From an uncultured virus (IMG/VR IMGVR_UViG_3300023710_000222) (lineage: Duplodnaviria > Heunggongvirae > Uroviricota > Caudoviricetes): a stretch of 64,000 bases of DNA. The notes under the pieces were generated by a model, which saw only the letters and a list, made by a program, of their open reading frames with translations, was not told where the DNA came from and searched no databases. The DNA lies in the IMG/VR virus record IMGVR_UViG_3300023710_000222; one strand, given 5' to 3'. Position 1 is the first letter of the stretch, and the number at the start of each line of letters is the position of its first letter. Shown here one piece after another: positions 8,264 through 34,972 of this stretch. Made by a program: the position numbers and the translations under genes.

Positions 8264-8272
8264 TACATTTGC
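8264..8272 (+). promoter_or_regulatory. Bacteroidetes -7 promoter element ahead of the structured region
   Basis: TACATTTGC matches TAnnTTTG. Confidence 0.45.
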
Positions 8273-9310
8273 AGTGTCTCACGGCTCAATACCCATTGAG
8301 CGGTAAAGAGACATTGGGGCCGACTGAAAGGAGGATTGCAGCGGGAAAAGGTGGCAGCGAGTGGCCTGGCTCCAGGCTTCGCCGTCCCTTTTCAAGCTGC
8401 AACGATAAGGCTTTTCATCCTGAAGTGCCTTATCGCCACTATCTAAATTCTTTCCTCTCTCCCCTTCCGAATACCACACGGATGCCAAGGTAAGTCAGCG
8501 TTTAGGCTATGCCGTTAAGAACGCCGACCTGCCTTGGTATTGGTGTGCGTATTGGACGGGGGCTTTGGAGGCACACTTGTATGCCTTCGTCAAGTGAGGC
8601 CTTGCCTCATGGAGGGTGCGGCATTTGAGCCGCTGGGAGGTGACGAGTGCCTTGCCCTGCCGTGTGCTGCTTGTCAGCCACAGCATGACAAGGCTTTCGT
8701 GGGTATTGTTCTATAGCAGCTTATCTTCGGGACGTGGATTTTCCGCCCATGCCATTTGCGTGGACGATTGCGATGCCCGGCAATGAGGCTGGAAAATCCA
8801 CATCCCAGAAGATGTGCTGCAGAACTGAGAAAGAGCCATTCGGCTTATCATGTCATTAGGCTTCAGCCCAATGATGTTGATGTGCCAGGAATGGCTTTGA
8901 TGGTGCGGCATTTATGCCGCTGGGAGGTGACGAGTGCCTTGTTTTGCCGTGCGCTGCCTGTCAGCCCACAGCAATGCAAGGCTTTCGTGAATAACCTGTC
9001 CCGAGGCTCTTCTTCAAGTACAGACTTGTCTATACTTCGGAGATGTGCCGAGGGATAAGTAGCCCTTGGGCTTTTATCAGGCATCGGCTCTTGCCGTCGT
9101 GCCTATGTGGTGGCCGTCACAGACAGAGGTGGTACTTGCCTACGGTGTGTGCTGCCTCTTGCGTGGCCGTAAGCAAATACCCCTCCGTCCGTGACGATGT
9201 GCGGTGGCGGCACAGACAGCAAGAGCAGATGGGGTTCGCGGGTGGGATTAAGCACTCTTCTTTCCTCTTTCAATAGGAGCCATCCGCCCCAACACTGGAG
9301 CGGATGACAC
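8273..9310 (+). ncRNA. Candidate large structured ncRNA (or structured ssDNA region)
   Basis: Back-to-back long imperfect hairpins, a duplicated ~87-nt module (8615-8701, 8902-8989) and no credible ORF. Confidence 0.5.
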
Positions 9311-9335
9311 CTGCACAAACGGCACAGCCACGTAC

Positions 9336-9959
9336 TCAGAGGACTCTGAATACATGGCCGTGCTCACCCATCGTGTAGTCAGTCATGAATAGATCACGTG
9401 CGAAAGCCTTATAATCAAAGTAACTTGACAAGCTTCCCATCATGTTATCGATATTGTAGCAGTCATTCACAAGCTGCTCAGCGAAGTCCTCCTCACTGTC
9501 CCACTCACCGCAGTAGGCTTCCTCAAAACTATCGAAGTCATCATCACTGCGAGTATCCATGTAGTCATCGAAAGCTTCTTGCCGTGATTCGTCCATTTCG
9601 GCGTACTTCTTTATTTTATCGAATGTCTCTTCATCCATGCAGCTCTCCGAGTACCAATCACGAGGGAAGTTCTCATAGTCCTGGAACATCAGTTCAGGAT
9701 CCTCTTCATCGCGGTGCAACAGTCGGCACACTTCCATGAACTCGTCGTAGTCTTTGAATGAGGCCAGATCCAGCCAGGCGCCGTCAATGCTGCCCTCATT
9801 GTATTTACGGTATGTCCCACAATAAACAGCGGGATTGCCTGATGTGTAATCGTAGCCGTGTTCACGGATGCGTTCATCAGCTTCCAGAGCCTCGCCCAGC
9901 TTGACTGTTACGAACTCCTGTTCAAGTTCTTGTTCGGAAAATAGATTCTTGTCTTGCAT
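9336..9959 (-). CDS. ardA: Antirestriction protein ArdA (acidic DNA mimic)
   Basis: VYCGTYRKYNEGSIDGAWLDL, ELMFQDYE and YFDYKAFARDLF motifs; very acidic. Start moved to the ATG at 9959 (MQDKN). Confidence 0.9.
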   Translation of the reverse strand: MQDKNLFSEQELEQEFVTVKLGEALEADERIREHGYDYTSGNPAVYCGTYRKYNEGSIDGAWLDLASFKDYDEFMEVCRLLHRDEEDPELMFQDYENFPRDWYSESCMDEETFDKIKKYAEMDESRQEAFDDYMDTRSDDDFDSFEEAYCGEWDSEEDFAEQLVNDCYNIDNMMGSLSSYFDYKAFARDLFMTDYTMGEHGHVFRVL

Positions 9960-9986
9960 AACTTTGATAATGTTTGGGTTAATACT

Positions 9987-10225
9987 TTGCCTCTGTGTGA
10001 GGCGTAACTCTTTTTTACGGTGCTTTATCAAAGGTAGCTGTGTGCAGACAAGCAAGGCCGAAGGAAGATTATTCACCCCTGGGCGTAGCAGAAATTGAAT
10101 AACAGTGCAGCCGTTGTTCCATTTGTGAGAAAAATCTTTTGTAGCCAAGGCCTCCGGCCAGCCTTTCATGTCAAAGCACGGTGATTTACCTTTGCGCCGG
10201 AAAAGAGAGTTACGCACAGAGGCAA
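9987..10225. promoter_or_regulatory. Fold-back element copy 1 (ssDNA-promoter-like) upstream of ardA
   Basis: Arms TTGCCTCTGTG..GCGTAACTCT..CAAAGGTA and TACCTTTG..AGAGTTACGCACAGAGGCAA are complementary; core shared with 24142-24408. Confidence 0.6.
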
Positions 10226-10533
10226 GTTCCAAACATGAAGTTGAGCAAGAACAGACAAGAATCCCGAAACAAGAACATTGGAGTCAAGTCAAGCACCATC
10301 AGCGAGGCCACGGCTGTACCTTTGCTGCCGTGCAGAAGCAAGAGGCATCCCGTCTGTGTGGAATCATACCGGATGAGGGTCATTGATACCATGTTTAAGA
10401 AGAGCTGGCCGCCCTCGATGACTACTTCCTCATGTGTGCCATCAGACCGTTACACCGCCATGAAAAACGAGGAGCCTTTAGGCCGCAGAACTTTTCGCAG
10501 GTACTCGGAATTAGAGCTGCATCGTTGAAGAGC

Positions 10534-10567
10534 AAAAAAATCCCGCCGTAGATGGACCACAGCGGGA
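10534..10567 (-). terminator. Putative intrinsic terminator after the lysis genes
   Basis: TCCCGC...GCGGGA stem followed by a T7 run on the minus strand. Confidence 0.55.
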
Positions 10568-10600
10568 AGCAGACTATATGGATGCAGTGATAATAACTTC

Positions 10601-11188
10601 CTACCTTTTGAATTTGCTAGCTGCAAGTAGTAGGACACCGAGGAGGATGGCAATAGCCATGATAAGGAATGCAAGATTACGGAATGTATTGGGAGGCTTC
10701 ACCACTTTCTCTAAATCGCCCGTTTCAGTGACCTTTTGATGACCGAAACGATGGGTAGAGACTGTATCTACAGACAGGCTCTCAGCACCTGCCGTTTGTG
10801 TATGTGTCAGCTGTGTGTTGGAGCGGATGCCCTTCAAAGACAGCCTTGCCGCGAGCCGCCCCGAAGCTTTAGATCGGGGCGGTCTCGTAGCGGCAAGGCT
10901 GTCATTATCCACACTAGGAATTTCGAGTGTGAAGATCTCCAGTTCGAGGCTGTCAGCCTCAATTGAATGCGTAGCATTGAGACTGTCGAAGAGCGCGAAG
11001 ATAGACTGTCCTAGGGACACCCGTTCTACGTGTTCTTCAAGTTGTTGAGTTGCTTCAATCTTTGTACTCTTTTTAACTGAGCCACAGGCAGTAAAGACTA
11101 CAAGGATAAAGAACAGTGCGAAGCACCGCGCGACCCTGAAAGCATACGTTCCAGGGTGGGCGGGATGGAAAGGAACGTATGCTTTCAT
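10601..11188 (-). CDS. Lipoprotein with C-terminal TM helix, unimolecular-spanin-like
   Basis: Hydrophobic signal ending FTAC, C-terminal hydrophobic helix, follows holin and endolysin. Confidence 0.55.
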   Translation of the reverse strand: MKAYVPFHPAHPGTYAFRVARCFALFFILVVFTACGSVKKSTKIEATQQLEEHVERVSLGQSIFALFDSLNATHSIEADSLELEIFTLEIPSVDNDSLAATRPPRSKASGRLAARLSLKGIRSNTQLTHTQTAGAESLSVDTVSTHRFGHQKVTETGDLEKVVKPPNTFRNLAFLIMAIAILLGVLLLAASKFKR

Positions 11189-11640
11189 GGGAGCGCTTTT
11201 TTGATGTCCATGTTGGAAATATACTCATATTCTTTTTTCGCATCGAACGATGGACAATCCTTTTTTGCGAAGTCCCGATGGCCATAAATCTTAGCCTCCG
11301 GGAAGGCCGCTTTGAGCAATTGAAGCAGAACCTTCATAGCCTCTTTCTGTTCTGGAGTGCGTGTATCTTCAGGTGTGCGTCCGTCCTCTTTGCGCACGCC
11401 ACCGATATAGCATACTCCGATGCTGTGTTTGTTGTGGCCACCTTCTTTACAGTGGGCACCTTCTTCTTCTATGGGCCTGCCTAAATGGATGGTGCCGTCA
11501 AGGTAGATGACATAGTGATAGCCGATACAACGGAAGTTGAATGGCGGTTTGCGGTGCCAGCTATCAATGTCTTCTACAGTGAAGTTAGCCCCTTTGGGCG
11601 TGGCACTGCAATGAACGATGATTTCATTGATCTGTCTCAT
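11185..11640 (-). CDS. N-acetylmuramoyl-L-alanine amidase (T7-lysozyme-like endolysin)
   Basis: IIVHCSAT, IGYHYVI, GAHC, SIGVCYIGG and GHRD..KDCPSFD motifs. Confidence 0.92.
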   Translation of the reverse strand: MRQINEIIVHCSATPKGANFTVEDIDSWHRKPPFNFRCIGYHYVIYLDGTIHLGRPIEEEGAHCKEGGHNKHSIGVCYIGGVRKEDGRTPEDTRTPEQKEAMKVLLQLLKAAFPEAKIYGHRDFAKKDCPSFDAKKEYEYISNMDIKKALP

Positions 11641-11878
11641 TTTGTGTTGAAGTTTTAGTTAGTTGTTTCTTGATGTCTGAGAACTTGGAATTGATATACA
11701 CGTTGATGCCGAGAGCGCTGCCCGCATATACGAGGCATTGTGCGGTGAACATCAGCACCGAGTCGGAGATTTCCCCCATAGGAGGTACGACGAATCCCGC
11801 GATGGAGAGGCCGACACCAGCCACTAGCATGGCGACGGCGGTAAAGACCTGGATGTCTGTTCGAGTTTCTTTTGTCAT
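11624..11878 (-). CDS. Putative holin
   Basis: 84 aa with two TM segments, overlapping the endolysin start. Confidence 0.65.
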   Translation of the reverse strand: MTKETRTDIQVFTAVAMLVAGVGLSIAGFVVPPMGEISDSVLMFTAQCLVYAGSALGINVYINSKFSDIKKQLTKTSTQNETDQ

Positions 11879-11890
11879 GGCTTTACATAT

Positions 11891-13219
11891 TTAGCTATTT
11901 GATAAGGAGCGTTCTAGAATTACCTCATACGAGCCACTGACATTTCTGTTATGGTCAGTGAGCGTGATTGTCAATTTGCCATTTCCGTTGCCTTGCCAGT
12001 AGTCATCTTCGTCTGCAATGAAAGTGACATAACGTTTTCCACCTTCATATTCCACATGGAAAACACTGTCATTTGTACCTAGTGACCATGTTACATTGCA
12101 GTCCATGGCACTCACCGAGTTTTCATCTTCATCCATTGCACTCAGTTGAATATCTACTTCAACACTTGATGCAATAGTGCACCCACTGCTAGTTACGTTC
12201 CTTACAGGAATGACGATAGTTGAAGGATTAGCAAAAGCAAACAGCTTTGCCTTCAATACATATCTGTTATCCAGACTGTTAAATCTATCATAGATACTCG
12301 ATATACTATCCTGCAGGTTAGATATTCCACTTTGCAGCTCGACTATTGTGAGTAACATGTCATTAACCTGCTCATCGAGGCTGTTCAATATTCTAAGATT
12401 CTCCTTTGTCATCAGTCCGGCATAGTTGCTGTTAGCCTGTCCTATGGTAAGTGCCAGTACTCCGGCGTTGTTTTCCATGAACGGATGCACCAGCTTGATG
12501 GTTGCAGTCGTTGCCGTGCGGCTTACGCCGATGTCCGTTCCTACAGAACTCCAGCTTCCCACTGACGAGATGGCCGTGCGCAGATTGTTTGTGAAGGTGA
12601 TTGTTCTCTGACTGTGTTTATTACCAGCAAAGTAAAGATTCTGAACCGTCGTTGTCGCATTGTGCGTTTGATGGATCATTCCCACGTTGTTGCCATATTT
12701 GTAGATAATCCATTTGATGCGAGTGGCTGATGCAATGGCCAGCTGTGCTGCCGCTTCCTCTCCTGGGGAAGATGCACTGCCCACGTCACCGAGGAAACGG
12801 ATTCCCATGTTTTCTAGTTCAACCTTATTGGCTATCCCTGTGATTCTGGTATAGTCCGTAGGGCTGATGACTCCGGCCAGTGTGGCTGATGCCAAGGGGA
12901 TGCTGATATTGACGGCACTTGTATCATCATCACCCTCTGTAAGCGTCAGCGTAATGTTGACAGCCTCTGCTGTACGTGTCACCCTTGATGCGATATTGAC
13001 TATTGCCGTATTCTTCAGCGCATCAAACTCTTCAGGGTCAACCCCATCTGTAGAGCCACCAACCTGGATGTTTGCCAGCTGTGAATCCGTTGCACAGTTG
13101 GCGATGAGGTTTGCCAGCTGCTGCAGCAGTGCGCCTATCCTCTCCGGAGTGATGCTTGCCTCCTGAGTCTCAGCACGGAGGGAAGATATGACTGATGTGA
13201 TGGAAGTAATGTTGTTCAT
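11891..13219 (-). CDS. Putative tail fibre / virion appendage protein
   Basis: Ser/Thr/Asn-rich; ETQEASITPERIG N-terminus, repeated A..AG(V/L)(I/M) motifs, coiled coil. Start moved to 13219 because the upstream in-frame part overlaps a promoter. Confidence 0.55.
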   Translation of the reverse strand: MNNITSITSVISSLRAETQEASITPERIGALLQQLANLIANCATDSQLANIQVGGSTDGVDPEEFDALKNTAIVNIASRVTRTAEAVNITLTLTEGDDDTSAVNISIPLASATLAGVISPTDYTRITGIANKVELENMGIRFLGDVGSASSPGEEAAAQLAIASATRIKWIIYKYGNNVGMIHQTHNATTTVQNLYFAGNKHSQRTITFTNNLRTAISSVGSWSSVGTDIGVSRTATTATIKLVHPFMENNAGVLALTIGQANSNYAGLMTKENLRILNSLDEQVNDMLLTIVELQSGISNLQDSISSIYDRFNSLDNRYVLKAKLFAFANPSTIVIPVRNVTSSGCTIASSVEVDIQLSAMDEDENSVSAMDCNVTWSLGTNDSVFHVEYEGGKRYVTFIADEDDYWQGNGNGKLTITLTDHNRNVSGSYEVILERSLSNS

Positions 13220-13273
13220 TGTGCGGTAGTATTTGTGTTTGTGTTTGTGATGTGATAGCCTGTTTTTCAGTTG

Positions 13274-13309
13274 CAAATGTACATACATATATACATGTGC
13301 GAAAAGACA
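13274..13309 (-). promoter_or_regulatory. Putative late promoter of the tail fibre / lysis operon
   Basis: TGTCTTTTCGC-N17-TACATTTG. Confidence 0.7.
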
Positions 13310-13321
13310 GATTTGACACCT

Positions 13322-13768
13322 TCATGCCCTCATGGTACCATGATAGCGTCGGAAGTTATAGTCATCCAGTGCCTCATTGATGATGCCGATGAACTCCTTG
13401 CCCAAGTTGTCTGCGTAGAACTCCTTGATGTTCATGAAGCTGGCATAGTACTTGATGGAGAACCAGCGGCGACGTTGGCGTACCTTGGCACGTCCTATGT
13501 CGCCCGGATTCCCTCGCGGCGTTTCGCGTCCCGTGCCATAGTCCTGCCACAGGCCGTATTCACGGAAGGCTTGGGTGAGGTGCACATCCACCAGCTTCCC
13601 GTCGGCCTTATAGCCGAGTGAGACGGGAGAATTGAGCAGCGTCTTGGTGTCAATGACATCAAGGAGCGTGATACGTTCCTTCCAAATCTTGATCATCGTG
13701 TCATTGAAGGCCGCGACATATTTTTGTCGTTCTTGCAGGGCCTGTTCCTGTGTCTGTTGCTGTGGCAT
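13322..13768 (-). CDS. Phage hypothetical protein (tail completion-like position)
   Basis: 148 aa ORF tightly packed in the morphogenesis region. Confidence 0.6.
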   Translation of the reverse strand: MPQQQTQEQALQERQKYVAAFNDTMIKIWKERITLLDVIDTKTLLNSPVSLGYKADGKLVDVHLTQAFREYGLWQDYGTGRETPRGNPGDIGRAKVRQRRRWFSIKYYASFMNIKEFYADNLGKEFIGIINEALDDYNFRRYHGTMRA

Positions 13769-13771
13769 AGC

Positions 13772-14314
13772 TTAATCGTATGACTGAGTGAACTGAGGAG
13801 AGAACGCGCCCATTTCCGGCAAGTTCTCCCATTCTGAAAAGCGAAAGCGTAGGTCGGTGAATGTGTCCACTGCCACTTGGAAGTAGGCACATGCACATCC
13901 GGAGAAGAAGTATTCGTCTATCTCCTGGAACTGTATTCGTTGGTCAAGGTAGATGGCATTCTGTTCGAGTCGTGTCCTTTCAAGGATGAGTCTCGACATG
14001 AATTGCCGGAATACTTCTCGCATTGTATCAAGGCATCTGCCACGTGCCGCCATATCGTCAATGGCGTGCCGTTTGGCGAAAAACACCGTCTTGATGCATC
14101 GTGTGTGCGGGCTGTTTGTGAGGTCGGTATAACCCTGTGAGCTGTCATCCACAGCGATGATGGCAGTAGCTGTCTGCAAACGCGCAAGTGCTTCCTCGAA
14201 GCCTTGCAGTCCTGTAACCCTGCAGAACTTGAAGCCCTGTTCCTGGGCGAGCTTGTTCTGCTCTGTAAGTTGTTTGAAGAACGCCGTGGCGTTCCAGTTG
14301 ATGTTTGGTATCAT
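13772..14314 (-). CDS. Phage hypothetical protein, 180 aa
   Basis: Protein-like sequence starts at MIPNINWN (ATG 14314); the upstream part of the track ORF is translated repeat. Confidence 0.65.
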   Translation of the reverse strand: MIPNINWNATAFFKQLTEQNKLAQEQGFKFCRVTGLQGFEEALARLQTATAIIAVDDSSQGYTDLTNSPHTRCIKTVFFAKRHAIDDMAARGRCLDTMREVFRQFMSRLILERTRLEQNAIYLDQRIQFQEIDEYFFSGCACAYFQVAVDTFTDLRFRFSEWENLPEMGAFSPQFTQSYD

Positions 14315-14358
14315 GGAGAATGGGATGAAAAATGAAAAGTGAAAAGAGAAAATGTAAA

Positions 14359-14930
14359 ATTGGGTTCGGCTCCCCGAATAGCGGCAGCGTCTGTCTTGGG
14401 GGCATGGGGTACTCCCCATAAACACCTCGGGGCTTGGGCATCTCCCAAATACACACCATCGGAGATATGGGGCTTGGGGACTCCCAAACAGCTTGCGTCC
14501 TTCTGATTGGGGTTCGGCATTCTCCCGAATAGCGGCAGCGTCTGGCTTGGGGGCATGGGGTACTCCCCATATACACCTCGGGGCTTGGGCATTCTCCCAA
14601 ATACACACCATCGGAGATATGGGGCTTGGGGACTCCCAAACAGCTTGCGTCTTTCTGATTGGGTTCGGCTCCCCGAATAGCGGCAGCGTCCTGTCTTGGG
14701 GGCATGGGGTGCTCCCCATATACACCTTGGGGCTTGGGCATTCTCCCAAATACACACCATCGGAGATATGGGGCTTGGGGACTCCCAAATAGCTTGCGTC
14801 CTTCTTATTGGGGTTCGGGCATTCTCCCGAATAGCGGCAGCGTCTGTCTTGGGGGCATGGGGCACTCCCCATATACACACCATCGGAGATATACCCAGCA
14901 TCGCAGATAAACATACCATCGGAGATATGC
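14359..14930. repeat. ~150-bp tandem repeat (about 3.5 units) built of short G/C hairpins
   Basis: Units start near 14359, 14506, 14658 and 14807; each has four GGG-loop-CCC stems. Confidence 0.95.
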
Positions 14931-14941
14931 CCCGAACAAGT

Positions 14942-15688
14942 TTACTTGTTAATCTTCCGAAGCTCTTCATATTCTTTCGCTTGTGCATTGAGTTCTGTAA
15001 GGGCTCTCCAAGTGTCCAATTGAAGGACTTCGGCTTCTTTTGTGACATCACCTTTGGTGAGGGCACGTATCTGAGCATCCATCGATTCCTGAAGATGGAT
15101 CGACAGCGAGGCACTGCCGAGCATATTCCCCTGCTTGGGGTCAAAGGGCTGGAATAGATGTGTGAAGCGGCTGCGTAACATCGTCTTGACGGAGGCGAAC
15201 CAATAGAACACCGCGACAGTCTGCGTCTTGTTGAGCCGGATGTCCTCAGCATCGTAGAGAATCGCCGCCATCTGGCGTATGATGTCCTCATCCTGTGTCT
15301 GTAGGAAACCTTGGTAGAGGTTATCCAGACAGAGGTACTTTTCAAATGGCACCCCCATCAGGTCTGCGGGCAATGACTCATGTCCGTCAATGCTCTCAGC
15401 CTTAATGGGAACAGGTGGCAGTTCATTCAGGAAAGACAGTTCGGTAGCGGCTGCTGCCGCTTGCGAGGCAGACAAGATTCCTTTTTGCTTGCCCAGTTGA
15501 ACGAGGAAGTTGTGCTTGCCCTGTGTTGCCAGAACCTTGATGCCGCTCCACCGGATTAGGCAGAAAGAACGGATAGCGGCAGCGTCATATCCTTCTGAAA
15601 GAAGGAAATAAACATATAGCTGCTGCGCAGTTGTCAACTCATTCCAGGCCTTGGGTAGTGACAGAGAAAAAGAAATAGCTGTTTCCAT
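14942..15688 (-). CDS. Phage hypothetical protein, 248 aa
   Basis: LPKAWNELT N-terminus; preceded by the late promoter motif. Confidence 0.65.
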   Translation of the reverse strand: METAISFSLSLPKAWNELTTAQQLYVYFLLSEGYDAAAIRSFCLIRWSGIKVLATQGKHNFLVQLGKQKGILSASQAAAAATELSFLNELPPVPIKAESIDGHESLPADLMGVPFEKYLCLDNLYQGFLQTQDEDIIRQMAAILYDAEDIRLNKTQTVAVFYWFASVKTMLRSRFTHLFQPFDPKQGNMLGSASLSIHLQESMDAQIRALTKGDVTKEAEVLQLDTWRALTELNAQAKEYEELRKINK

Positions 15689-15692
15689 ACTG

Positions 15693-15728
15693 CAAAAGTA
15701 CGGTAACAGCCATCAATGCGAAAAGACA
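15693..15728 (-). promoter_or_regulatory. Putative late promoter, probably giving a leaderless mRNA
   Basis: TGTCTTTTCGC-N17-TACTTTTG, then only 4 nt before the ATG at 15688. Confidence 0.7.
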
Positions 15729-15739
15729 AAAAATGTAGG

Positions 15740-17161
15740 TTATTTGACCTTGATAATATCCTTTATATCCGTCGTGTAGAACGGAGAACGGCGGTCGTGA
15801 AGGATGCTGTTGCGGAATGTGATGGCCTTGCCTGTTGCCGGATCGATGCTTCTCATTGCCTGTGCTACCATCATTGTTTCATCCCCGTGTTTACGGTTAA
15901 TGGCATCTGCAACCTCAGACAGCTTTGTAAGTTTCTGCTTCAGGATTGGCGGGATGTCAAGAAAGTTGGTCTGCAGTTCCGAATCAGGAACAATGCCGCT
16001 GACGATGACTCCGGCGCGTTTCCATTGGAAGGGAGGCCCACCCCCAGCCCCTCCCCATGGGAGGGGAGAATGTTGGCGCGTAGTTAGCAATAGTTCATCC
16101 TCATTGCTTGCAATCAACTTTTCTTCCTCTGATATATAATGGCTTATGGTTGCAGTAGATATACAACCTTCCATAGCCTTCATGGCAGCTTTGACAATCT
16201 CAGGGTCAGAGCTGGCTGGAGCCAGGAGGTTCACCGTGCGTCCGATTGACATCTGATCCAAGTCCTCGCGGAAGGGATTGGTGGACATGAAGACCGTAAC
16301 GTACTGAGCCATACTGTGCTGCGCCCTCAGCTTCTGCGCACACCGTGCCGCGAAACCCGCTATGGGCGTTGCCAACATCTCAGCAGAAGCAATCATCTTC
16401 GGGAAGCTGCGACTCGTGCAGATAGTCTGCTTGCGAGGCAGGTTATCCAGAGCTATGCAATCGCGTCCGTGCAGTTCCATCCACGTGCGAAGACCTGTGA
16501 CAGTCATTGCACGGCGCACGGACTCAGCATCAACCCGCGTAAAGTCAAGAGCGGTCTTGATGCCCCGCGCCTGTAGTCGTGCCGCATGACGTCGCCCGAT
16601 GCCCCAAACATCCTCTACAGGAAAGAGCGAAAGCGCTTTCTCCCGTTGTGTATCCGTCTCGATGAAGCAACATTTCTTGTACGCCGGATAGCGTTTGGCA
16701 AACTTGCTGGCCACCTTGGCCAGCGTCTTAGTCCGTGCAATGCCGATACTCACAGGCATTCCCGTCCACTGGCGTACCTTGGCAGCAAGCGCCTCGCCCC
16801 ACTGCTTGAAGTCCATTTTCATGTAGGGGGACTCATTCCACATCAGGAATGCTTCATCGATGCTATATACGAAAATCTCAGGCGCACTGTCACGAAGGAT
16901 ATTCATTACACGGCGGGACATATCCCCGTATAAAGTGTAGTTGCTGCTGAGTGCGTGAATCTCCTGCCCGGGGAAACGTTCTGCCAGTTGGAAGAACGGT
17001 AATCCTTCAGGTACGCCTAAGGCTTTCGCCTCCTGACTGCGTGCTACCACACAGCCGTCGTTGTTCGAGAGAACCACAACCGCCTTGCCTTCGAGTGCGG
17101 GATTAAAAACCCGTTCACAAGACACGTAACAATTATCACAATCTACGAGAGCGTATATCAT
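15740..17161 (-). CDS. umuC: Y-family DNA polymerase V catalytic subunit UmuC
   Basis: [45 protein letters not shown] and VWGIGRR motifs; start at MIYAL (17161). Confidence 0.93.
16037..16068. repeat. REP-like palindromic element inside umuC
   Basis: CCCACCCCCAGCCCCTCCCCATGGGAGGGGAG with a CCCCTCCC/GGGAGGGG stem; translated as [11 protein letters not shown]. Confidence 0.6.
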
Positions 17162-17282
17162 AGCGGGGACAAAAATACTAAAAACTGTCCAAAAAGCAGT
17201 GCAGAAGTCACATATAACCTTAAAAACAAGGTAAAATTGACCGATTTTATTTACTTTTGCACCGCAAAACAGACAATCCTTT

Positions 17283-17738
17283 ATGAACGAGATACAAATA
17301 CTGACAGCAGAGATAGGTGAAGAAGTCAAGCTTCCCTATTTTCCCGGCGGCATCCGTGCGGGCTTCCCTTCTCCGGCTACTGACTACGAGGAAGAATCCA
17401 TTGACCTCAACCATGAGCTTATCAAGCACCGTGAGGCCACCTTCTTTGCCCGTGTCAATGGTGATTCCATGATAGATGCTGGCTACGTACCCGGTGACCT
17501 CATAGTTATAGATAGAGCCTTGGAGCCTAAGGATGGCGATGTCGTTGTGGCATGGGTAGATGGCGATGATACAGGCTTCACCATCAAGGAGCTTGATTTA
17601 TCCAAGCAGAAAGAAGGCATCGTCAGGCTTGTTCCTCATAACAAGGCCTATCAGCCCATTGTCATTACTACCGAACAGCGTAGCATCATCTGGGGTGTTG
17701 TCACCTACTGTATCCATCAGAGTTCAAGAATCAGATAA
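17283..17738 (+). CDS. umuD: UmuD / S24 peptidase subunit
   Basis: IRAGFPSPA cleavage region, GDSM serine, FTIK lysine; TACTTTTG promoter element at 17252-17259. Confidence 0.92.
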
Positions 17739-17748
17739 ATCGGAATTT

Positions 17749-18390
17749 ATGGAAATCAATAATAGACCCAACCCCAATGAGGCTTTTCCGAATCCGAAGA
17801 TTCCAAGCCTCTGCTTCATCAAGAACGTGGTGAAGAACCCGCGTATCATCATCGGCGACTATACCTACTACGATGATGTGGATGGTGCTGACCAGTTCGA
17901 GAAGCATGTCACTCATTTCTACGATTTCATAGGCGACCGACTGATTATTGGCAAATTCTGCGCTATTGCCAAGGGTGTGGAGTTTGTCATGAATGGAGCC
18001 AATCATAGGATGGACGGTGTGACAACCTATCCGTTTTATGTCATTGGTGGCGACTGGGGAAGTGCCATTGCTCCAGTGAAAGATGAATTGCCTCTGAAGG
18101 GTGATACCGTTGTGGGCAATGATGTCTGGATTGGCCAGCATGTTACTATCATGCCAGGCGTTCACATAGGTGACGGAGCAATTATCGGAGCCAACTCTGT
18201 TGTTGCCTCAGACATTCCTCCATACGCTGTTGCTGTGGGTAATCCGTGCCGAGTGGTCAGGATGCGTTTTGACGACGAATTCATTGCCTTTCTGTTGCAA
18301 CTGAAATGGTGGGATTGGGACATTGAGAAAATAGAGCGCAATTTCAAAGCTTTGTCAAGTGGTGATTTATCATTGATCAGAAACCTATAA
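17749..18390 (+). CDS. vat: Vat/CatB-family hexapeptide-repeat O-acetyltransferase
   Basis: [43 protein letters not shown] and KWWDW motifs; start at ATG 17749. Confidence 0.85.
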
Positions 18391-18431
18391 ATTCCAATTT
18401 ATCGGACAGTTTACTTCAACATTTCATCACT

Positions 18432-18728
18432 ATGGAAACCTTCAACGATGTAATCAATAGCGGCGAGTTGGTTTTGGCCGATTTCTTTGCCACTTGGTGC
18501 GGCCCCTGTAAGGCCATGCACCCCGTATTGGAACAGTTAAAAGCCCAATTGGGCGACCGCGTCCGCATTATCAAGGTGGATGTGGATAAACACGGCATTC
18601 CCGCAGAAGAGTATAATGTGCAGGCTGTACCCACATTGATACTTTTCCGCAGTGGTCAAGTCCTTTGGCGACAGAGCGGAGCCATGCCACTTAACCAACT
18701 ACTTTCAGTGGTGAATCAATATCTATAA
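18432..18728 (+). CDS. trxA: Thioredoxin
   Basis: DFFATWCGPCK. Confidence 0.95.
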   Translation: METFNDVINSGELVLADFFATWCGPCKAMHPVLEQLKAQLGDRVRIIKVDVDKHGIPAEEYNVQAVPTLILFRSGQVLWRQSGAMPLNQLLSVVNQYL

Positions 18729-18731
18729 TCC

Positions 18732-19361
18732 ATGCTGATACAAGTGACACCCGAACTTCAGCGCTATGTCGAAGCCAATATCATACCGAGGTATGACAGT
18801 TTCGACAAAGCCCATCAGCGTGATCATGTTTTGATGGTCATACAGCAAAGCATGGAACTGGCTGAAAAGTTGGGTGTCAATGCCGATATGGCCTACGCCA
18901 TAGCTGCCTATCACGATACAGGCCTGTGCGAAGGAAGAGAGCGCCACCATGAAGTATCAGCCAGGATTATCAAGGCAGACCAAACACTGCGCAGGTGGTT
19001 CACAGAAGAGCAGATAGTCACCATGGCCGATGCAGCAGAAGACCATCGTGCTTCATCCGGCCATGAGCCTCGCACCATCTATGGCCGCATTGTGGCAGAG
19101 GCAGACCGTTTTATTGATGCAGCCACCATCATCCGCAGAACCATTCAGTACGGTTTTGACCATTATCCGGAGTATAGCCGTGAAGAGCATTTTCAGCGTA
19201 TGGTGGCACATCTTCATGAGAAATATGGCCGTAATGGCTATCTTCACCTATGGTTTGAGGATTCCCCCAATGCCGAACGATTAAGGCAGCTTCAAGACAT
19301 CATAGATGATGAAGCTGCCCTTATGCAGTATTTCAATCAGTATTTTGACAGTCAGGATTAG
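18732..19361 (+). CDS. HD-domain phosphohydrolase
   Basis: AH...H, YHDTG, HH, EDHRAS and AEADR motifs. Confidence 0.85.
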   Translation: MLIQVTPELQRYVEANIIPRYDSFDKAHQRDHVLMVIQQSMELAEKLGVNADMAYAIAAYHDTGLCEGRERHHEVSARIIKADQTLRRWFTEEQIVTMADAAEDHRASSGHEPRTIYGRIVAEADRFIDAATIIRRTIQYGFDHYPEYSREEHFQRMVAHLHEKYGRNGYLHLWFEDSPNAERLRQLQDIIDDEAALMQYFNQYFDSQD

Positions 19362-20206
19362 AAGAAGTACCCCTGGGCTTCCTTCTTGTTCTCAAATATG
19401 GGTGGTTCGAACAATTTGGCCGTGTCGGAGCTATGCCATTCCGGGAATATGTCTGTCTGGGAACGGATGACGTTCACCAAGTCTGACATATAGCGATGGC
19501 CAATGGGGTTGCCATTCAGCTGTGATACAATCTCTGCTGTAAGGTGTGTGAGGACGTAGGCACGGCCAGACTGTTCGGCGGGTGACAGTTCGGCATAGCC
19601 GATGCCAAACTGATACGTATGCAGATGTGCCAGCAATTCAGGACTGATGAACGAGTTAGCCAGTTCATCCTCAATCTGAATGATGCGAGGCACCAGTGCG
19701 CGGTAAGCCACAAAGCGGTGTTCGCGGATCTGCAGCTGATGACAGACCGAGATATTGGGAAGCAGGGTCTGCGCCCAATATCCGAACACTTCCGACTGTT
19801 GCCAGTCGGCGCGTTTGAATAGCGACTTCTGCAGAAGTATAATGGCATCGTCGCGCTGCATCTCTATTGAGCCATTCAGTCTATCGACGCGATCACGCGA
19901 AGCCGGAGCGATGTTCTGATTGCTTACGATGCCGAATCCGTTAGGTGTCAGTACCAGGTCCAAGGACGGTAAGGCGTGAATGAGGGCATGACAAACCACG
20001 ATGCGGCAAGCGAGTGGTCTATTTGCGCCCTCATTCTCAGCCGTGATAGCGGCCAATGGTGCTGCACCTGTGATATAGTTGGCCAGCCATGATTCAGCCT
20101 CTGAGAGATAAGCACTCAGCTTCTCGAAGAGCGAGGCTTCCCCCTCGACAGTGACGAGAGCATTGGGAAAAAAGGAACGGAGTTCCTGGTCATTTGTGAT
20201 TAGCAT
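19358..20206 (-). CDS. Phage head-tail connector-like protein (DUF6712-like)
   Basis: Follows the portal-like gene; LDLVLTPNGFGIV..APAS motif; start likely MLITND (20206). Confidence 0.55.
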   Translation of the reverse strand: MLITNDQELRSFFPNALVTVEGEASLFEKLSAYLSEAESWLANYITGAAPLAAITAENEGANRPLACRIVVCHALIHALPSLDLVLTPNGFGIVSNQNIAPASRDRVDRLNGSIEMQRDDAIILLQKSLFKRADWQQSEVFGYWAQTLLPNISVCHQLQIREHRFVAYRALVPRIIQIEDELANSFISPELLAHLHTYQFGIGYAELSPAEQSGRAYVLTHLTAEIVSQLNGNPIGHRYMSDLVNVIRSQTDIFPEWHSSDTAKLFEPPIFENKKEAQGYFF

Positions 20207-20242
20207 AGGGCAATTTATTATTGACGATTTATAGATCAATGC

Positions 20243-20311
20243 CTATCAGCCTTGCCGTGAGCCGCTTCGCTGCACCGCTGCGAAGCGGTCTCATCACGGC
20301 AAGGCTGATAG
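20243..20311. repeat. Long intergenic hairpin
   Basis: Perfect 18-bp arms CTATCAGCCTTGCCGTGA / TCACGGCAAGGCTGATAG plus inner 9-bp stem CCGCTTCGC / GCGAAGCGG. Confidence 0.9.
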
Positions 20312-20314
20312 TAC

Positions 20315-21700
20315 CTATGATTGATTCTCTTCGGTAGTTACTTTCTTGGCATCCTTGTTTTCATCAAGGGTGGTAAGCTGTATAAATGGACAGTCCGGCG
20401 TTACGCCGTCCCATTTGTTGAACTTGATGATGATGCGATGCACGGTGAAGAGCAAATCATGATACGGCTTCTGCAGGGCCTGTGCGATGGTATAAAGCTC
20501 CCGTTTGTCCGATCCGGAGTTGTTTGACTGCGACTTGCCGGGAACAGACCCCACGAGGTTCGAGTGTACGCGCATGGTAAAGCAGATGATGTTGATGGCT
20601 TCGGCGATGTCCGATGCCCAATCACCACCCTCTTTGTCCGTATCAATCTTGTTGATAATGACATCATGATTCTCCTGTCCGTCCGGTGTTTTGTAGTGGC
20701 AAGAGAACCACACCTTGCCCGAGTTCTCAACGCCCGTAAGGAAGTCAAGAATCTCCTGTTTCGCTTTCTTGACCCTTGCCTGCTGTTTCTTGCGGTCAGT
20801 GATACCTTCCGAACGGAAAAGATTCTCCCAATACTTATTTGAAATCTCGATGTGGTACTTGATGGGAGCCGTGTTTTTCAGCTTGCTTTCCTTGGCAATG
20901 CCTATGAGCCTCTTGATGTTGTACCACTTCCCTTTGAACAGCGCGGCATAGTACGGTATGGGATAATACGTACTATCAGGTGTAGGAATACGTGTGACGA
21001 TGGCAAACTTATGTCCCTTTGCACTAACCTTTGTATTTCCGTCTGCCCCCGGCATCTTTCCCATTCGCACGGCGAGGTCAGCCCAAGGTGCAGAGACGGA
21101 AAGCAGTGGAATCTTCTCGACCTTTTCCTTGTCGAAGGAAGACTCCCGCCAGTTTGCATAGAGGATATAGGGAATATCCCCATTCTTGTCAGCCGGAGCG
21201 AAGCGGCAGTAGCAAGCCTCCTTACGGAGCAGTCTGACGATTCGGGTATTATCCCCGTTGAGGATGATGACAGAGACACAGAAGGCGAAGTGTTTCAGGT
21301 CCTGGCAAACCCCGAGGTAGTAGCTACTGAGGTCGTTTGACAGTAGGAACTCCTCCACCTGCTCTTTCACCTCTTTACTTGCTGCCTCCGTATTGTAACG
21401 CAGTCCGTCCCCATAGACGATTTCAGCATTGAACATCTGGCAGGTGGAAAGTGTCTCGTCATCCTCAATATACCTCAGGATGTCGTAAGGCATCTGGTTA
21501 TCCCCGCCCCAAGGCATGTATTCCATCTTGTCATTGAGCTTGATGGGGCTGGTGTCTGTCGTTTCCTTGAATACAGCGCTGCTGTCCGAGGTAAACGCCG
21601 CTCGTGCTTCTATGTCTGGAATGTCCTCGATGGATGCAAAGCCATACTGAGGCATATCCACAGGCACTGTATGAACTTGATTAAAAGATTTCTTTCTCAT
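20315..21700 (-). CDS. Putative portal protein
   Basis: 461 aa; PWGGDNQMP, YYPIPYY, LTGVENSGK and SGSDKREL motifs that I associate with Bacteroidetes phage portal-like proteins. Confidence 0.65.
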   Translation of the reverse strand: MRKKSFNQVHTVPVDMPQYGFASIEDIPDIEARAAFTSDSSAVFKETTDTSPIKLNDKMEYMPWGGDNQMPYDILRYIEDDETLSTCQMFNAEIVYGDGLRYNTEAASKEVKEQVEEFLLSNDLSSYYLGVCQDLKHFAFCVSVIILNGDNTRIVRLLRKEACYCRFAPADKNGDIPYILYANWRESSFDKEKVEKIPLLSVSAPWADLAVRMGKMPGADGNTKVSAKGHKFAIVTRIPTPDSTYYPIPYYAALFKGKWYNIKRLIGIAKESKLKNTAPIKYHIEISNKYWENLFRSEGITDRKKQQARVKKAKQEILDFLTGVENSGKVWFSCHYKTPDGQENHDVIINKIDTDKEGGDWASDIAEAINIICFTMRVHSNLVGSVPGKSQSNNSGSDKRELYTIAQALQKPYHDLLFTVHRIIIKFNKWDGVTPDCPFIQLTTLDENKDAKKVTTEENQS

Positions 21701-21730
21701 TGTAGTTTTATGTGTTTGTGTGTTGTGTGT

Positions 21731-21964
21731 TCAAAGATACACTTCCATCCCATTGAGTCGGAAGATGCAAACATCTCGCACCTTTCGTATCTCGTTGGAA
21801 GGCCGGAGCTTTACATTTCGCGTCCCTTCATAGAAGTTATAGCGCAGGGATATACAGTCATTGTATGTCTGAATCTCCCCCTTGGAAGTCCAGAAAGAGA
21901 TGCTGACAGGATCGTGGCTGTCCAGTATCTTCTTGGCGGTGGTGATGTGTATTGCGTTTGCCAT
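21731..21964 (-). CDS. Phage hypothetical protein, 77 aa
   Basis: Compact ORF in the operon before the portal gene. Confidence 0.65.
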   Translation of the reverse strand: MANAIHITTAKKILDSHDPVSISFWTSKGEIQTYNDCISLRYNFYEGTRNVKLRPSNEIRKVRDVCIFRLNGMEVYL

Positions 21965-21967
21965 GAG

Positions 21968-23083
21968 TTATGCGAATTTATTGTTGAACTGAGCCGAGAA
22001 CTTCCGTGTTACCTCGTTCGTTTCGGTGAGCGTTGTCAATGTCGCTCCCTGCCGTTTCAGGCGGTACGTGAACTTGATGCGTCGGTGTTCCTCATCGCTG
22101 TCCGTCACTTCGGCGTTCATGTCGGTAATGAGGATGTCCGTAAAAGTGCCGTCCTTCTCCACTCTCTGCACCTTATGAGACAGCAACAGTTGTGCAGCCC
22201 AATCCGCTTCCTCGGTACTTAGCGGTGCGGTAGTGACCTCATACTCTTGTGAGTCCACCTGATCATAGAAGAGCGACTGGCCATGAGAAGTAGCTATGCT
22301 GCGCTCTGTGTCCGTCTTCGTCACCGTCACCGCATCGAGGTATATCATTTCCTCCACGTTGAACACGTTTTTGAAGTGGAACCTCTGCGTAGGCTTGAAA
22401 TCGTAGTCCACATAATACGTGAAGAGCCGTGCCCCTGCTTTCACGGTATAATACATCAGCTTCATCTCCTCGATGGTGTATTCATCCGGGTCGTAGTTGC
22501 TATCACAAGCATCCCAGACGGCATCATAGCCGATAGCGAGTGCTTTTCTTACATAATAGCCTGTAATCGGAAACGTCATTTCCAGCGTGAAGATGGTATC
22601 TGCGGGAGTCAGGAAGTACGCTGTCAGCGTGTAGCTGTTCGGCGCATTCCCTTCTTCCGCCGAATAATTCAGCCACAGGCGTTCCTTATCGCTGCTGCTC
22701 CCTGCAGGTATGCGTTTGGCAGTCAGTGAACTCAGGAAATGATTGGCGAGGAACCTGGTACAGTCAACGTTTGTGCTGAACGGGCAGTGATAAGCCACGA
22801 AGGGCGTGCTCAGAATACGATTATTCCCAGAGTAGAATGAGACGTCAATGACGCTTTCCGTGATGTCACCATTTCTCATGTCCTCCTCAATGAGCGGTCC
22901 AAGGTCGTAAAGGATTACTTTCCCATTGACCGGATAGATTGTCGTATTCAGGATGCGATGACGGTTTTCTTCACAGTCGCCGTATATCTGCACATTCAGC
23001 GGGTCGATGCCCGCCTGTGCATATTCCAGCGGCGGGATCTGCGAAGTGAAGAGACATTGTGTTATGGATGTAACGAGGTTCAT
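21968..23083 (-). CDS. Phage hypothetical (probably structural) protein, 371 aa
   Basis: First gene after a late promoter motif. Confidence 0.6.
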   Translation of the reverse strand: MNLVTSITQCLFTSQIPPLEYAQAGIDPLNVQIYGDCEENRHRILNTTIYPVNGKVILYDLGPLIEEDMRNGDITESVIDVSFYSGNNRILSTPFVAYHCPFSTNVDCTRFLANHFLSSLTAKRIPAGSSSDKERLWLNYSAEEGNAPNSYTLTAYFLTPADTIFTLEMTFPITGYYVRKALAIGYDAVWDACDSNYDPDEYTIEEMKLMYYTVKAGARLFTYYVDYDFKPTQRFHFKNVFNVEEMIYLDAVTVTKTDTERSIATSHGQSLFYDQVDSQEYEVTTAPLSTEEADWAAQLLLSHKVQRVEKDGTFTDILITDMNAEVTDSDEEHRRIKFTYRLKRQGATLTTLTETNEVTRKFSAQFNNKFA

Positions 23084-23118
23084 TGTGCGGTGTTTGTGTT
23101 GTTGTCAGTTACCGAATG

Positions 23119-23154
23119 CAAAGTTACAATAACATGTACGCACGCGAAAAGACA
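23119..23154 (-). promoter_or_regulatory. Putative late promoter of the portal operon
   Basis: TGTCTTTTCGC-N17-TAACTTTG. Confidence 0.7.
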
Positions 23155-23186
23155 AAAAAGAGGGGTTAAAAGAGGAGGAAGGAGGG

Positions 23187-23441
23187 CTAACTGCCCTCCT
23201 CTTCCTCCGTACTCCAATGCGGAGTCTTGACAATCGCGTTGAAGTCGCGGGGGAAGTTCTCCCAACCTCGTTCTTCATCGAGGAAGTCAACAAGTTCCTT
23301 GAACTCTTCTTCCTCAACGAGGACGAAGGTACGGCTTGTTTCGCCGATGACAACTTCTGCCTGGTGATCATACTGGGCATCCTGCAGATGTTGGACTGCC
23401 TTCAGGACCAACTCTGTGACGATGAATGGAACTTCTTTCAT
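23187..23441 (-). CDS. Small acidic hypothetical protein, 84 aa
   Basis: MKEVPFIV... from ATG 23441; the longer track ORF overlaps the upstream gene. Confidence 0.6.
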   Translation of the reverse strand: MKEVPFIVTELVLKAVQHLQDAQYDHQAEVVIGETSRTFVLVEEEEFKELVDFLDEERGWENFPRDFNAIVKTPHWSTEEEEGS

Positions 23442-23497
23442 AATGCTGAATGATTTAGAGTGTGGATAAATGAGGATTATTGAGTGAGGGAAGTGGC

Positions 23498-23866
23498 CTA
23501 CGCGGCCACCTCCTCTATCTGCTTCTTCGTGCGACGTGTGCGCTTCTTGGGCTGGGCATCCTCTGCGGGCTGCTCTTCGACGGCCTCCGTGGGCTGTGCC
23601 TCCTCCTTGGGAGTGCGGGGCTTGTACCAATTGAGCTTGCCCTTCTCGTTCTCGGCGTAGTAGCTCTTCAGCTGCTCCAGCGTGTTGTCCTCGATGGGGA
23701 ACTGAGTGCGGGCTTTGAGGATGAAGCAGAACTGCATGGCCTTGATGGCGTGCTTGCAGTACCCCTGGAGTTCGGGATTGTCGCATCCGGTGACGTGGAC
23801 GAACCACACATTGTTGTTACTCTTGTTCGATTGAACCATCTCTGCTACGATTGAATACTGTGACAT
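23498..23866 (-). CDS. Hypothetical protein, 122 aa
   Basis: Clean ORF with an A-rich leader. Confidence 0.7.
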   Translation of the reverse strand: MSQYSIVAEMVQSNKSNNNVWFVHVTGCDNPELQGYCKHAIKAMQFCFILKARTQFPIEDNTLEQLKSYYAENEKGKLNWYKPRTPKEEAQPTEAVEEQPAEDAQPKKRTRRTKKQIEEVAA

Positions 23867-23903
23867 AGTTGTAAAGTTGTTTAGGGGTTATTGAATTATT
23901 GGA

Positions 23904-24128
23904 TTAGTAAGCGTTGATATTCATGAAGGAAATCTGTATGCAGTCATGGAAAGCAAGATTCTCGGCCTCACGTGCTGCATCCTCGAAGCTCTCAGCCGAT
24001 ACGCTATATTCTCTTGATTCTCCGTCGAAGTCCACCACCTCTACGGTGAACATATTGCTGAGGAAAACTTTTGCACTTCTTTTGTGTGAGCGAAGGCGGA
24101 AATCTGCTGTCATGTAGTGAGTTGTCAT
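23904..24128 (-). CDS. Hypothetical protein, 74 aa
   Basis: First ORF downstream of fold-back element copy 2. Confidence 0.65.
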   Translation of the reverse strand: MTTHYMTADFRLRSHKRSAKVFLSNMFTVEVVDFDGESREYSVSAESFEDAAREAENLAFHDCIQISFMNINAY

Positions 24129-24141
24129 AATGATTAAGAGT

Positions 24142-24408
24142 TTTTGTTATTGGTTTTGTGTGCCGAAGCACTTTTGAATTTTGACAGTGCTTTACCAAGG
24201 TAAGCCAGGCGAAGAGCAGCAAGGCCGAAGCAAATTATTTTCACCCCTTGTGGGCTTTAGCAGAAATTAGTCTGACCCACGGCTCACGGCTCATTTGTTT
24301 GAAAATAATTTGTGTAGCCAAGGCCTCCGGCCAGCCTTGCAGCACGAGAATGGCGATTTACCTTTGCAATGGCAAAATCATAAGTGTGCTTCAGGTACGA
24401 TAACAAAA
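24142..24408. promoter_or_regulatory. Fold-back element copy 2 (ssDNA-promoter-like)
   Basis: Complementary arms; 26-nt block TGTAGCCAAGGCCTCCGGCCAGCCTT (24313-24338) identical to 10140-10165. Confidence 0.6.
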
Positions 24409-25074
24409 GCAAGTGAAGACAAAAGCTCCATGGTGACAACTCAATGACAGTAGATTGCCCGCTCACATAGAGATAAGAAGCGCGTACCGCTTTAGCAATT
24501 TGCGTAGAGACAGGTGGACTTGGAGAGACAAGGGAATGTATCGGTAAAGAGCGGATGCAGAAAAGATGGCCATGGCAGAATCCCCATGACCAGCAGACAG
24601 ATACATGAATAGCAACAAAAAAGCTCTAATCCATCAATAACCTACAACGTGCAACGTCACAAAGTATGGTAGCAATAGAGATGGTGACGAATAAGAGTGA
24701 CATAGGAACAATGTCAGTTCATCCACGCGGATGCGACCCGAAGACACAAGATTATGGGTACAATCGGCATCAAAGCCAATAATGCAGTCGCTCCATACCA
24801 AGCCCACAGAGCACCAGCTAACAGACCTCCCCCAAACAAAACGCCCGTAGTTCGCCACTCCCTTGGGACTGGCGAACTGCGAGGCGTTGGGGAGGTCAAA
24901 GCCAGCGGACAACACAGGAGTAGCGGCTACTACGCCAACAGAGAACGTGAAACGGCAAGCTCGGTACATGCCCCATCAAGCAGCACACACCTCAGAGGCC
25001 ATCAAGCAGCCTGCCGCCAAGCCCTGCACACATAGCATGATAATAGAAGCAATGGAGGTGGCCGATGGCCACAA

Positions 25075-34951: not shown

Positions 34952-34972
34952 ATAGCGAATGTATTATATAAC

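Follow-up and report, generated by a model that had tools for sequence, protein, structure and literature searches.

What does a long, conserved fold-back do directly in front of a gene on a tailed phage? The question is raised by two related elements in a 64,000-nucleotide stretch of DNA from an uncultured tailed virus (IMG/VR record IMGVR_UViG_3300023710_000222), which we analysed at its full length and refer to as the window. Element 1 lies directly upstream of the anti-restriction gene ardA, and element 2 lies directly upstream of a cassette of two small genes, here called g74 and g122. From sequence comparisons, we consider it probable (roughly 0.6) that each element is a single-stranded DNA (ssDNA) promoter of a Bacteroidota type, i.e., an analogue of the Frpo/ssi promoters of IncF/IncI plasmids. 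The two elements belong to a wider and previously undescribed Bacteroidales family of fold-backs of about 400 nt. Single-strand promoters explain how plasmids express anti-defence genes before their DNA becomes double-stranded, and to our knowledge they have so far been described for sigma-70 hosts.

Two quasi-palindromes that mirror the starts of their own genes

Element 1 spans positions 9900..10293 of the + strand, which is the template strand of ardA. Alignment of its arms places the proximal arm at 9900-10103 and the distal arm at 10113-10293, with 136 matches, 5 G:T pairs, 1 A:C pair, and 12 other mismatches. Element 2, also on the + strand, spans 24073..24483 (proximal arm 24073-24243, distal arm 24300-24483; 132 matches, 5 G:T, and 2 A:C). 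The first-pass annotation, made from the sequence alone, had recognised two real fold-backs here but had drawn them too short, as self-complementarity extends over the whole of these intervals. Folded as DNA over the shorter stretches, element 1 reached -51.1 kcal/mol on the + strand (z -5.7) and -48.4 on the - strand, and element 2 reached -50.1 (z -4.4) and -44.4, respectively; over both elements and both strands, z-scores against dinucleotide shuffles ranged from -3.3 to -5.7. In a wider run, the energies were -93.3 (+) vs. -89.9 (-) kcal/mol for element 1 and -91.1 (+) vs. -82.6 (-) kcal/mol for element 2.

Within each quasi-palindrome sits a conserved structured core, which our covariance model matches on the + strand at 10012..10204 (202 bits) and at 24179..24376 (236 bits), the next best match in the window scoring 14.9 bits. 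The core of element 1 contains the helix GCAAGGC:GCCTTTC and a small hairpin, GGCC-TCC-GGCC, at 10149-10159; the small hairpin of element 2 is at 24322-24332. Pairwise alignment confirmed the common blocks that had been noticed at first pass, including an identical 26-mer (10140-10165 and 24313-24338) and GATTTACCTTTGC. The accompanying claim that the outer arms differ in sequence while each remains self-complementary was also borne out, and it has a simple basis. The proximal arms take in the 5′ untranslated region, the start codon, and roughly the first 20 codons of ardA (ATG at 9962) or g74 (ATG at 24128), and the distal arm is a degenerate, frame-broken mirror of the gene-proximal sequence. 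Because each distal arm mirrors the start of its own gene, pairing holds inside each element although the outer arms of the two have different sequences. This arrangement, in which the outer arms differ while the core is common, also led us to reject a miniature inverted-repeat transposable element.

The genes that follow both elements are on the - strand. The gene downstream of element 1 (9336..9962) is a clear ardA (Pfam ArdA, E 7.6e-35; PHROG anti-restriction protein). Downstream of element 2, the first gene is g74 (23904..24128, 74 aa), which has 46 relatives, all unnamed, and the second is g122 (23498..23866, 122 aa), which travels with the element and g74 in related loci. Three small genes had originally been listed after element 2; of these, g74 and g122 are conserved as a cassette. 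Neither g74 nor g122 could be assigned to a Pfam, PHROG, or NCBIfam family, their relatives are all unnamed, and Atlas provided weak leads only. Just past the distal arm of element 1, an additional TACCTTTGC occupies the loop of a 6-bp hairpin on the + strand (10308-10333).

The structure is conserved and the template strand folds

Across 20 aligned family members, 90.7% of cells are paired, compared with 73.1% in shuffles, and none of 500 shuffles reaches 90.7%, although the alignment used (A4) was fitted to the model's structure and hence leans towards it. Changes on both sides are seen in 39 of the 49 core pairs, and controls in which the partners were slid by 1-3 columns are at most 52% paired. 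For instance, one relative (L333) carries two clean double changes that turn the small hairpin GGCC-TCC-GGCC into GTCC-TCC-GGAC and the helix GCAAGGC:GCCTTGC into GCAAGGA:TCCTTGC, and in its distal arm the mirror of its own coding sequence extends over more than 85 nt.

To see which strand folds, the arms were aligned with a scoring that treats all mismatches alike, and G:T and A:C oppositions were then counted on the template strand. The 19 family members gave 143 G:T against 76 A:C, with G:T more frequent in 16/19; 28 distinct ardA loci of IMG/VR phages gave 257 against 73 (27/28); and six ardA loci in genomes of other families gave 54 against 8 (5/6). Base composition predicts a G:T/A:C ratio of just 1.06-1.24. 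At one of the IMG/VR loci the count was 34:2, with fold energies of -111 vs. -67 kcal/mol, and overall the template strand had the lower fold energy in 18/19 family members and 27/28 IMG/VR ardA loci. The compared sequences are related and not independent, so that these counts overstate the statistical support; with one representative for each of 11 lineages, grouped by eye, G:T still exceeded A:C in 9/11. The excess of G:T over A:C on the template strand marks it as the folding strand, in agreement with the first-pass proposal, and the comparisons point to a large imperfect stem-loop that appears to be under selection for pairing on that strand.

This wobble bias argues against a sense-strand 5′ leader RNA, the alternative named at first pass. 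More generally, a structured RNA could be a leader within sense read-through transcripts, masking the ribosome site or serving as a target of RNase III cleavage, or else an antisense RNA that carries the + strand sequence. The hairpin would indeed sequester the start codon region, and phage T7 carries an RNase III site before its anti-restriction gene. The account given for plasmid pLS20 (PMC6294495) likewise describes establishment genes controlled via a leader RNA mechanism. Nevertheless, a sense RNA predicts the wobble on the other strand, the opposite of what is observed, and the antisense version needs a promoter inside unrelated coding sequences and leaves unexplained the invariant TAnnTTTG box described below. 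No Rfam model, that of the STAXI motif included, reached its gathering score in the window, and at E values up to 0.1 a search of 12 family loci returned only a sub-threshold mir-297 match elsewhere in one of them (L349). Overall, we regard a structured RNA as quite improbable.

A host promoter box on the distal arm

The primary sigma factor of the Bacteroidetes, sigma-ABfr, is described as recognising TAnnTTTG near -7 and TTTG near -33 (PMC7366714). On the distal arm, both elements carry the -7 box TACCTTTG on the template strand, at 10187..10194 (+) in element 1 and 24359..24366 (+) in element 2. Each box is preceded by a -33-like element with a 19-nt spacer (TTTC at 10164-10167 and CTTG at 24336-24339, respectively), and in element 1 it is followed by a conserved A-run at 10201-10204. 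The proximal complement of the box is perfect in element 1, where the mirrored, gene-facing TACCTTTG at 10029..10036 (-) is intact, but in element 2 the corresponding sequence at 24195..24202 (-) reads TACCTTGG, which is not a consensus -7 box.

The family as a whole shows the same asymmetry. The distal template-strand box is a perfect TAnnTTTG in 14/19 members and has one mismatch in the other 5, while a perfect mirrored box facing the gene occurs in 1/19, namely element 1. All 28 phage ardA loci have exactly one outward-facing box, 113-231 nt upstream of the gene (-113 to -231), and none of the 28 has a gene-facing box within 500 nt. The six genomic ardA loci have an outward box in four cases and a gene-facing box in none. 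When 39 distinct sequences were compared anchored on the box, the box positions were invariant or nearly so, a TTG-type element lay 17-20 nt upstream in most, an almost invariant C followed the box, and an invariant A-run lay 7-9 nt further on, matched by an invariant TTTT at the 5′ end of the core. At the box or immediately past it, the template (proximal) arm usually has 4-6 bases that are extra or mismatched, such that the start region would be partly open in the hairpin. In line with the Bacteroidetes-sigma promoter foreseen at first pass, the box is conserved on the distal arm of the template strand, and its mirrored gene-facing copy is not. Judged by these patterns, the stem appears to rebuild the boxes of a host sigma promoter and to aim them at the gene only when folded.

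The same boxes could have a function on duplex DNA, as an ordinary promoter that fires away from the gene and serves as an insulator against read-through or yields an antisense transcript or decoy RNA, with gene conversion between the arms, or template switching, maintaining the palindrome. With both boxes and a conserved start region, the outward-facing promoter appears complete and may simply fire outward on duplex DNA; the arms of L333 share an exact 26-nt stretch, which fits a recent conversion; and transcription of the downstream genes could come from read-through out of upstream operons. Against this, a duplex function predicts no strand preference, whereas the wobble favours the template strand 2- to 7-fold, compared with the 1.06-1.24 expected, and the core, which lies upstream of the box, shows the covariation of a folded structure. 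Nothing is conserved in the outward direction, where we found no conserved reading frame from the box, and the upstream neighbours vary from locus to locus. The wobble bias thus argues against purely duplex explanations, including a palindrome maintained by gene conversion only, and we consider a duplex function improbable.

Relatives, orientation, and gene neighbourhoods

Similarity searches reached no further than one narrow clade and located only near-identical copies, at 15 loci in rumen metagenome-assembled genomes (MAGs) and metagenomes, all in one orientation. These are the 15 real copies among 180 stretches returned by a 19-mer scan of genome and metagenome contigs, whose matches in Bacteroidia MAGs were dismissed as coding-sequence coincidences. 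Direct similarity search found no match in phage records, blastn against 200 genomes of the family found none, and two pattern scans of IMG/VR returned 0 matches; a third returned 102, rejected as chance matches in GC-rich contigs. More distant relatives were reached with covariance models. A first model (R1) matched 3/150 relatives, and a second (R2) matched 12/150 genomes of the same genus and 6/150 of the same family, the latter across five other genera. Weak matches of R2 (E 2.5e-6 to 0.02) also fall at 17 of the IMG/VR ardA loci, directly upstream of ardA and on its template strand, and these are either distant members of the same family or close mimics.

The single orientation bears on whether the elements are invertible promoter switches (invertons), in which the segment between the arms flips the good box towards the gene. 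Invertible promoters are common in Bacteroidales, inverted repeats here flank a promoter, and a tyrosine recombinase gene lies at window 1-1281. However, 15/15 independent metagenome and MAG contigs share the orientation (0/15 inverted), and the box faces away from the gene in 19/19 family members whose flanks could be read. With lengths of 100-170 nt and many indels, the arms do not resemble the short exact sites of recombinases, and inversion would leave the strand bias unexplained. On orientation and arm quality, we rejected the inverton as very improbable.

Diverged relatives sit in phage-like islands and in conjugative transposons with tra genes. Genes directly downstream of the elements and on the opposite strand were called, with gene starts obtained for 16 of 17 relatives. 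ArdA is directly downstream in genome G670, and genes for the ssDNA-binding protein SSB follow at three loci (two SSB genes in G692 and G065, one in G059). The second downstream gene is ArdC-N-like in G150 and, weakly, in G143, and the third is PRTRC protein E (PRTRC_E) in G076. In other relatives, the element is followed by the g74/g122 cassette. The locus in G065 is part of a conjugative transposon that encodes ParA, a pair of TraE-like proteins, TraG, and TraM; that of G076 resembles an integrative and conjugative element, with topoisomerase III, DUF3945/DUF4099, PRTRC, and integrases; and G124, G150, and G143 have phage-like contexts. CTnDOT-type conjugative transposons (TraG, TraJ, TraM, TraN-like, TraO, TraQ) harbour two of the genomic ardA loci. 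The IMG/VR contigs with ardA are phages and follow the order primase or helicase loader, fold-back, ardA, head protease. This outcome favours the first-pass reading, which expected homologues before anti-defence or early genes: they precede ardA, ssb, ArdC-N-like, and PRTRC genes, in part on conjugative transposons. The position of the elements directly upstream of apparent establishment and anti-defence genes seems to be a property of the family, the g74/g122 cassette being of unassigned function.

In G617 and G660, element and cassette come immediately after the large terminase, in G673 they lie between other genes, and in the window 25 kb of cargo separates them from the terminase; this varied placement indicates that the element and g74/g122 move as a unit. 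The phages with conserved, covarying elements have terminases that are only about 25% identical, from which we conclude that the elements are functional in phages. Three copies of the element 2 type (L116, L210, and L240) carry a 73-nt insertion in the apical core, and a fourth locus (L219) carries a 9-nt insertion at the same place, so the apex tolerates indels while the stems are kept.

The gene association also separates the promoter from a related possibility, namely that the folded template strand is mainly a single-strand origin (sso/ssi) at which RNA polymerase makes a primer for complementary-strand synthesis, after conjugal entry or in rolling-circle replication, with expression of the neighbouring gene secondary. 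The evidence on structure and strand is the same for both, and each phage relative has at least one copy of the element. As far as the published accounts go, Frpo is described as serving both transcription and priming (PMC12672017), and an sso is known in ICEBs1 (PMC4595007). A pure origin, however, needs neither a stem over the gene start nor a position upstream of a gene, and in every lineage examined the stem covers and co-varies with the start codon and first codons of its own gene, the elements always being directly upstream of the gene on the correct strand. Both observations count against a pure origin, which we consider unlikely; a priming role may exist alongside the promoter role.

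A proposed promoter that would form when the template strand is exposed

Returning to the ssDNA promoter, we propose the following sequence of events. The + strand, which is the template of the downstream genes, would fold when single-stranded into a long imperfect hairpin topped by the small structured core. The distal arm would then act as the non-template strand of a sigma-ABfr promoter, with a TTG-type -33 element, a spacer of 17-20 nt, TAnnTTTG, and a C-N4-G-N-AAA start region, and the proximal arm as the template, where the usual bulge or mismatches of 4-6 nt at or just past the box would leave the start region partly pre-melted. Host RNA polymerase would start in the stem, opposite the conserved A-run (start templated near 10011-10016 and 24179-24182), and run down the proximal arm into ardA (element 1) or g74/g122 (element 2), for which a leader of roughly 50 nt is predicted. 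In the duplex, this box would aim away from the gene. In this scheme, recognition by the polymerase, the start site, the dependence on a single strand, and the event that exposes the strand are the parts that we infer. Those of its predictions that could be examined at the sequence level were all borne out.

Several points weigh against this proposal, beyond the lean of the alignment towards structure, the relatedness of the compared sequences, and the complete look of the outward promoter. Arm-to-arm gene conversion or template switching could maintain complementarity without selection, although neither explains the strand bias. By sequence the family is narrow, as R2 gave just 2 weak matches in 150 order-level genomes. 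Of four public sequencing runs, a raw DNA run had zero depth over both elements, and three RNA-type runs consisted of contigs that break at the palindrome. In the conjugative transposons, the folded strand would need to be the transferred one (the T-strand). Tailed phages deliver duplex DNA. Relaxase and type IV secretion genes were looked for in the window's island and none were found, so there is no known step that would make its + strand single-stranded; nor was an origin of transfer (oriT) found in the window. In a phage, ssDNA might come from conjugal hitch-hiking of an oriT-only island, from the resection of ends that are cut or incoming, or from rolling-circle replication; oriT-only hitchers have been reported in Pseudomonadota, according to a preprint account (bioRxiv 10.64898/2026.01.13.699239).

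The broader idea that widespread temperate tailed phages of Bacteroidales drive ardA and a small-gene cassette from ssDNA-only promoters is tentative, and on present comparisons we think it somewhat doubtful. If it is true, there is a defined moment at which these phage genomes expose their template strand, and the phage takes strand exposure as the signal to fire its counter-defence and establishment genes. A conserved, covarying device of this kind inside tailed phages is unexpected, and would imply that their life cycle includes a single-stranded stage or trigger, or else that prophages are mobilised by conjugation. A Bacteroidota version of the single-strand promoter would also offer a first handle on how the conjugative transposons by which resistance and defence genes spread among gut and rumen Bacteroidales become established early on, and it would provide a sequence-and-structure signature for leading-region-like anti-defence cassettes, including unknown genes such as g74 and g122.

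The island that carries the elements

The window carries nearly all of its genes on the - strand. They include a tape-measure protein, a lysin amidase, a Clp-type head protease, a weak terminase match, a DnaG-type primase, and an integrase, as well as umuC with an adjoining S24 peptidase. A host polysaccharide locus lies to the right of the window, which sets the size of the island at about 64 kb, and the island is a prophage-like element. Only window 18025-64000 maps to the assembly G000 (contig 12, 1-45976), and element 1 and ArdA were not found in that genome; the left 18 kb, including element 1, is therefore absent or unassembled there.

A complete BREX type 1 locus (32438-49090; BrxR-like WYL, BrxA, BrxB, BrxC, PglX, PglZ, and BrxL), with a SIR2-domain gene inserted in it, is located between the terminase and element 2, the terminase directly abutting the element in relatives. 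Upstream of element 2, a 74-nt GC-rich hairpin (24824-24897) falls within a predicted 111-aa open reading frame (ORF; 24634-24969). Directly downstream of ardA, the stretch 7200-9330 is rich in repeats and has only short, doubtful ORFs. Within it lie four tandem copies of about 100 nt (7645-8060) and a direct repeat of 68 nt at 8612 and 8899. It also has a palindrome of 100 nt (8461-8561), the arms of which are similar to the proximal arm of element 2. The stretch may function as a cis-acting site or represent the decayed remains of a third element.

Other repeats and signals were noted in the island. A second hairpin family, AGCCTTGCCG...CGGCAAGGCT, has copies at 10842-10900 and 20248-20306 (0 matches expected by chance), with apical stems that differ between the two copies and are self-complementary in each. 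One copy falls within a predicted 195-aa ORF (10601-11188), which may for this reason be mis-called. A 380-aa ORF at 13772-14914 is built on tandem repeats of about 150 nt, and two neighbouring paralogous genes of about 195 aa (53740-54947) are 82-86% identical at the DNA level. Five conventional gene-facing promoters on the - strand (7197, 13274, 15693, 23119, and 57323) have in common an extended block, TTGTCTTTTCGCG, situated some 20 nt upstream of a perfect TAnnTTTG box, and probably represent a phage-specific promoter class.

Comparison with known systems

Within the literature library that was covered, full-text searches returned no report linking Frpo-type or other ssDNA promoters with Bacteroidota, conjugative transposons, or prophages. 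The main text and 10 of the 11 supplementary files of Samuel et al. 2024 contain no Bacteroidota candidate, "Bacteroid" being absent from the text and occurring in those files only in a TraN annotation.

Several known systems resemble the elements in part. Like the single-strand origins of ssoA type, of filamentous phages, and of ICEBs1, they are orientation-specific hairpins of one strand that would mimic a promoter of the host RNA polymerase. Single-strand origins recognised by RNA polymerase include the ssoA type of rolling-circle plasmids and the minus-strand origin of filamentous phages; at these a short primer is made, and there is no tie to a gene start, in which they differ from elements 1 and 2. 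The early promoters of phage N4 are template-strand hairpins that serve as phage promoters, the role proposed for our elements. The N4 hairpins are 5-7 bp, extruded from supercoiled duplex, and read by a virion RNA polymerase. In contrast, the stems described here exceed 100 bp and carry host-type boxes, and no virion polymerase gene was seen among the genes of the window.

The STAXI motif (Ssbp, Topoisomerase, Antirestriction, XerDC Integrase; Weinberg et al. 2010, PMC2864571) is, as far as its published description goes, also a structured non-coding motif beside ssb, topoisomerase, anti-restriction, and integrase genes for which an ssDNA role was considered. It differs in being a tandemly repeated pseudoknot, which its authors judged more likely to be RNA.

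The closest parallel is provided by the Frpo/ssi promoters and the class 2 and 3 hairpin promoters of pESBL. As described in the cited accounts, Frpo/ssi (Frpo1 and Frpo2 of F; ssi1-3 of ColIb-P9) are single-strand promoters of IncF/IncI plasmids with several related copies per element (PMC9849209, PMC12672017, PMC11541004), and together with the pESBL promoters they precede ssb, ardA, and klcA (PMC9849209, PMC12672017). Within the limits of those descriptions, the likeness is threefold: both groups are imperfect template-strand stem-loops of 250-400 nt that would rebuild host promoter boxes; both occur in several copies per element directly upstream of ssb, ardA, and similar establishment genes; and in both the boxes on duplex DNA are not aimed at the gene. 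A blastn search (word size 11) of element 1 against 72,556 PLSDB plasmids gave no match. The elements described here further differ from Frpo/ssi in that their boxes are those of Bacteroidota sigma-ABfr (-33 TTTG, -7 TAnnTTTG) and not of sigma-70, their stem reaches the coding part of the gene that follows, their apex is formed by a branched core that covaries, and they occur both on conjugative transposons and on tailed (pro)phages. Given the lack of sequence homology and the boxes of another sigma factor, we class them as analogues of Frpo/ssi rather than homologues.

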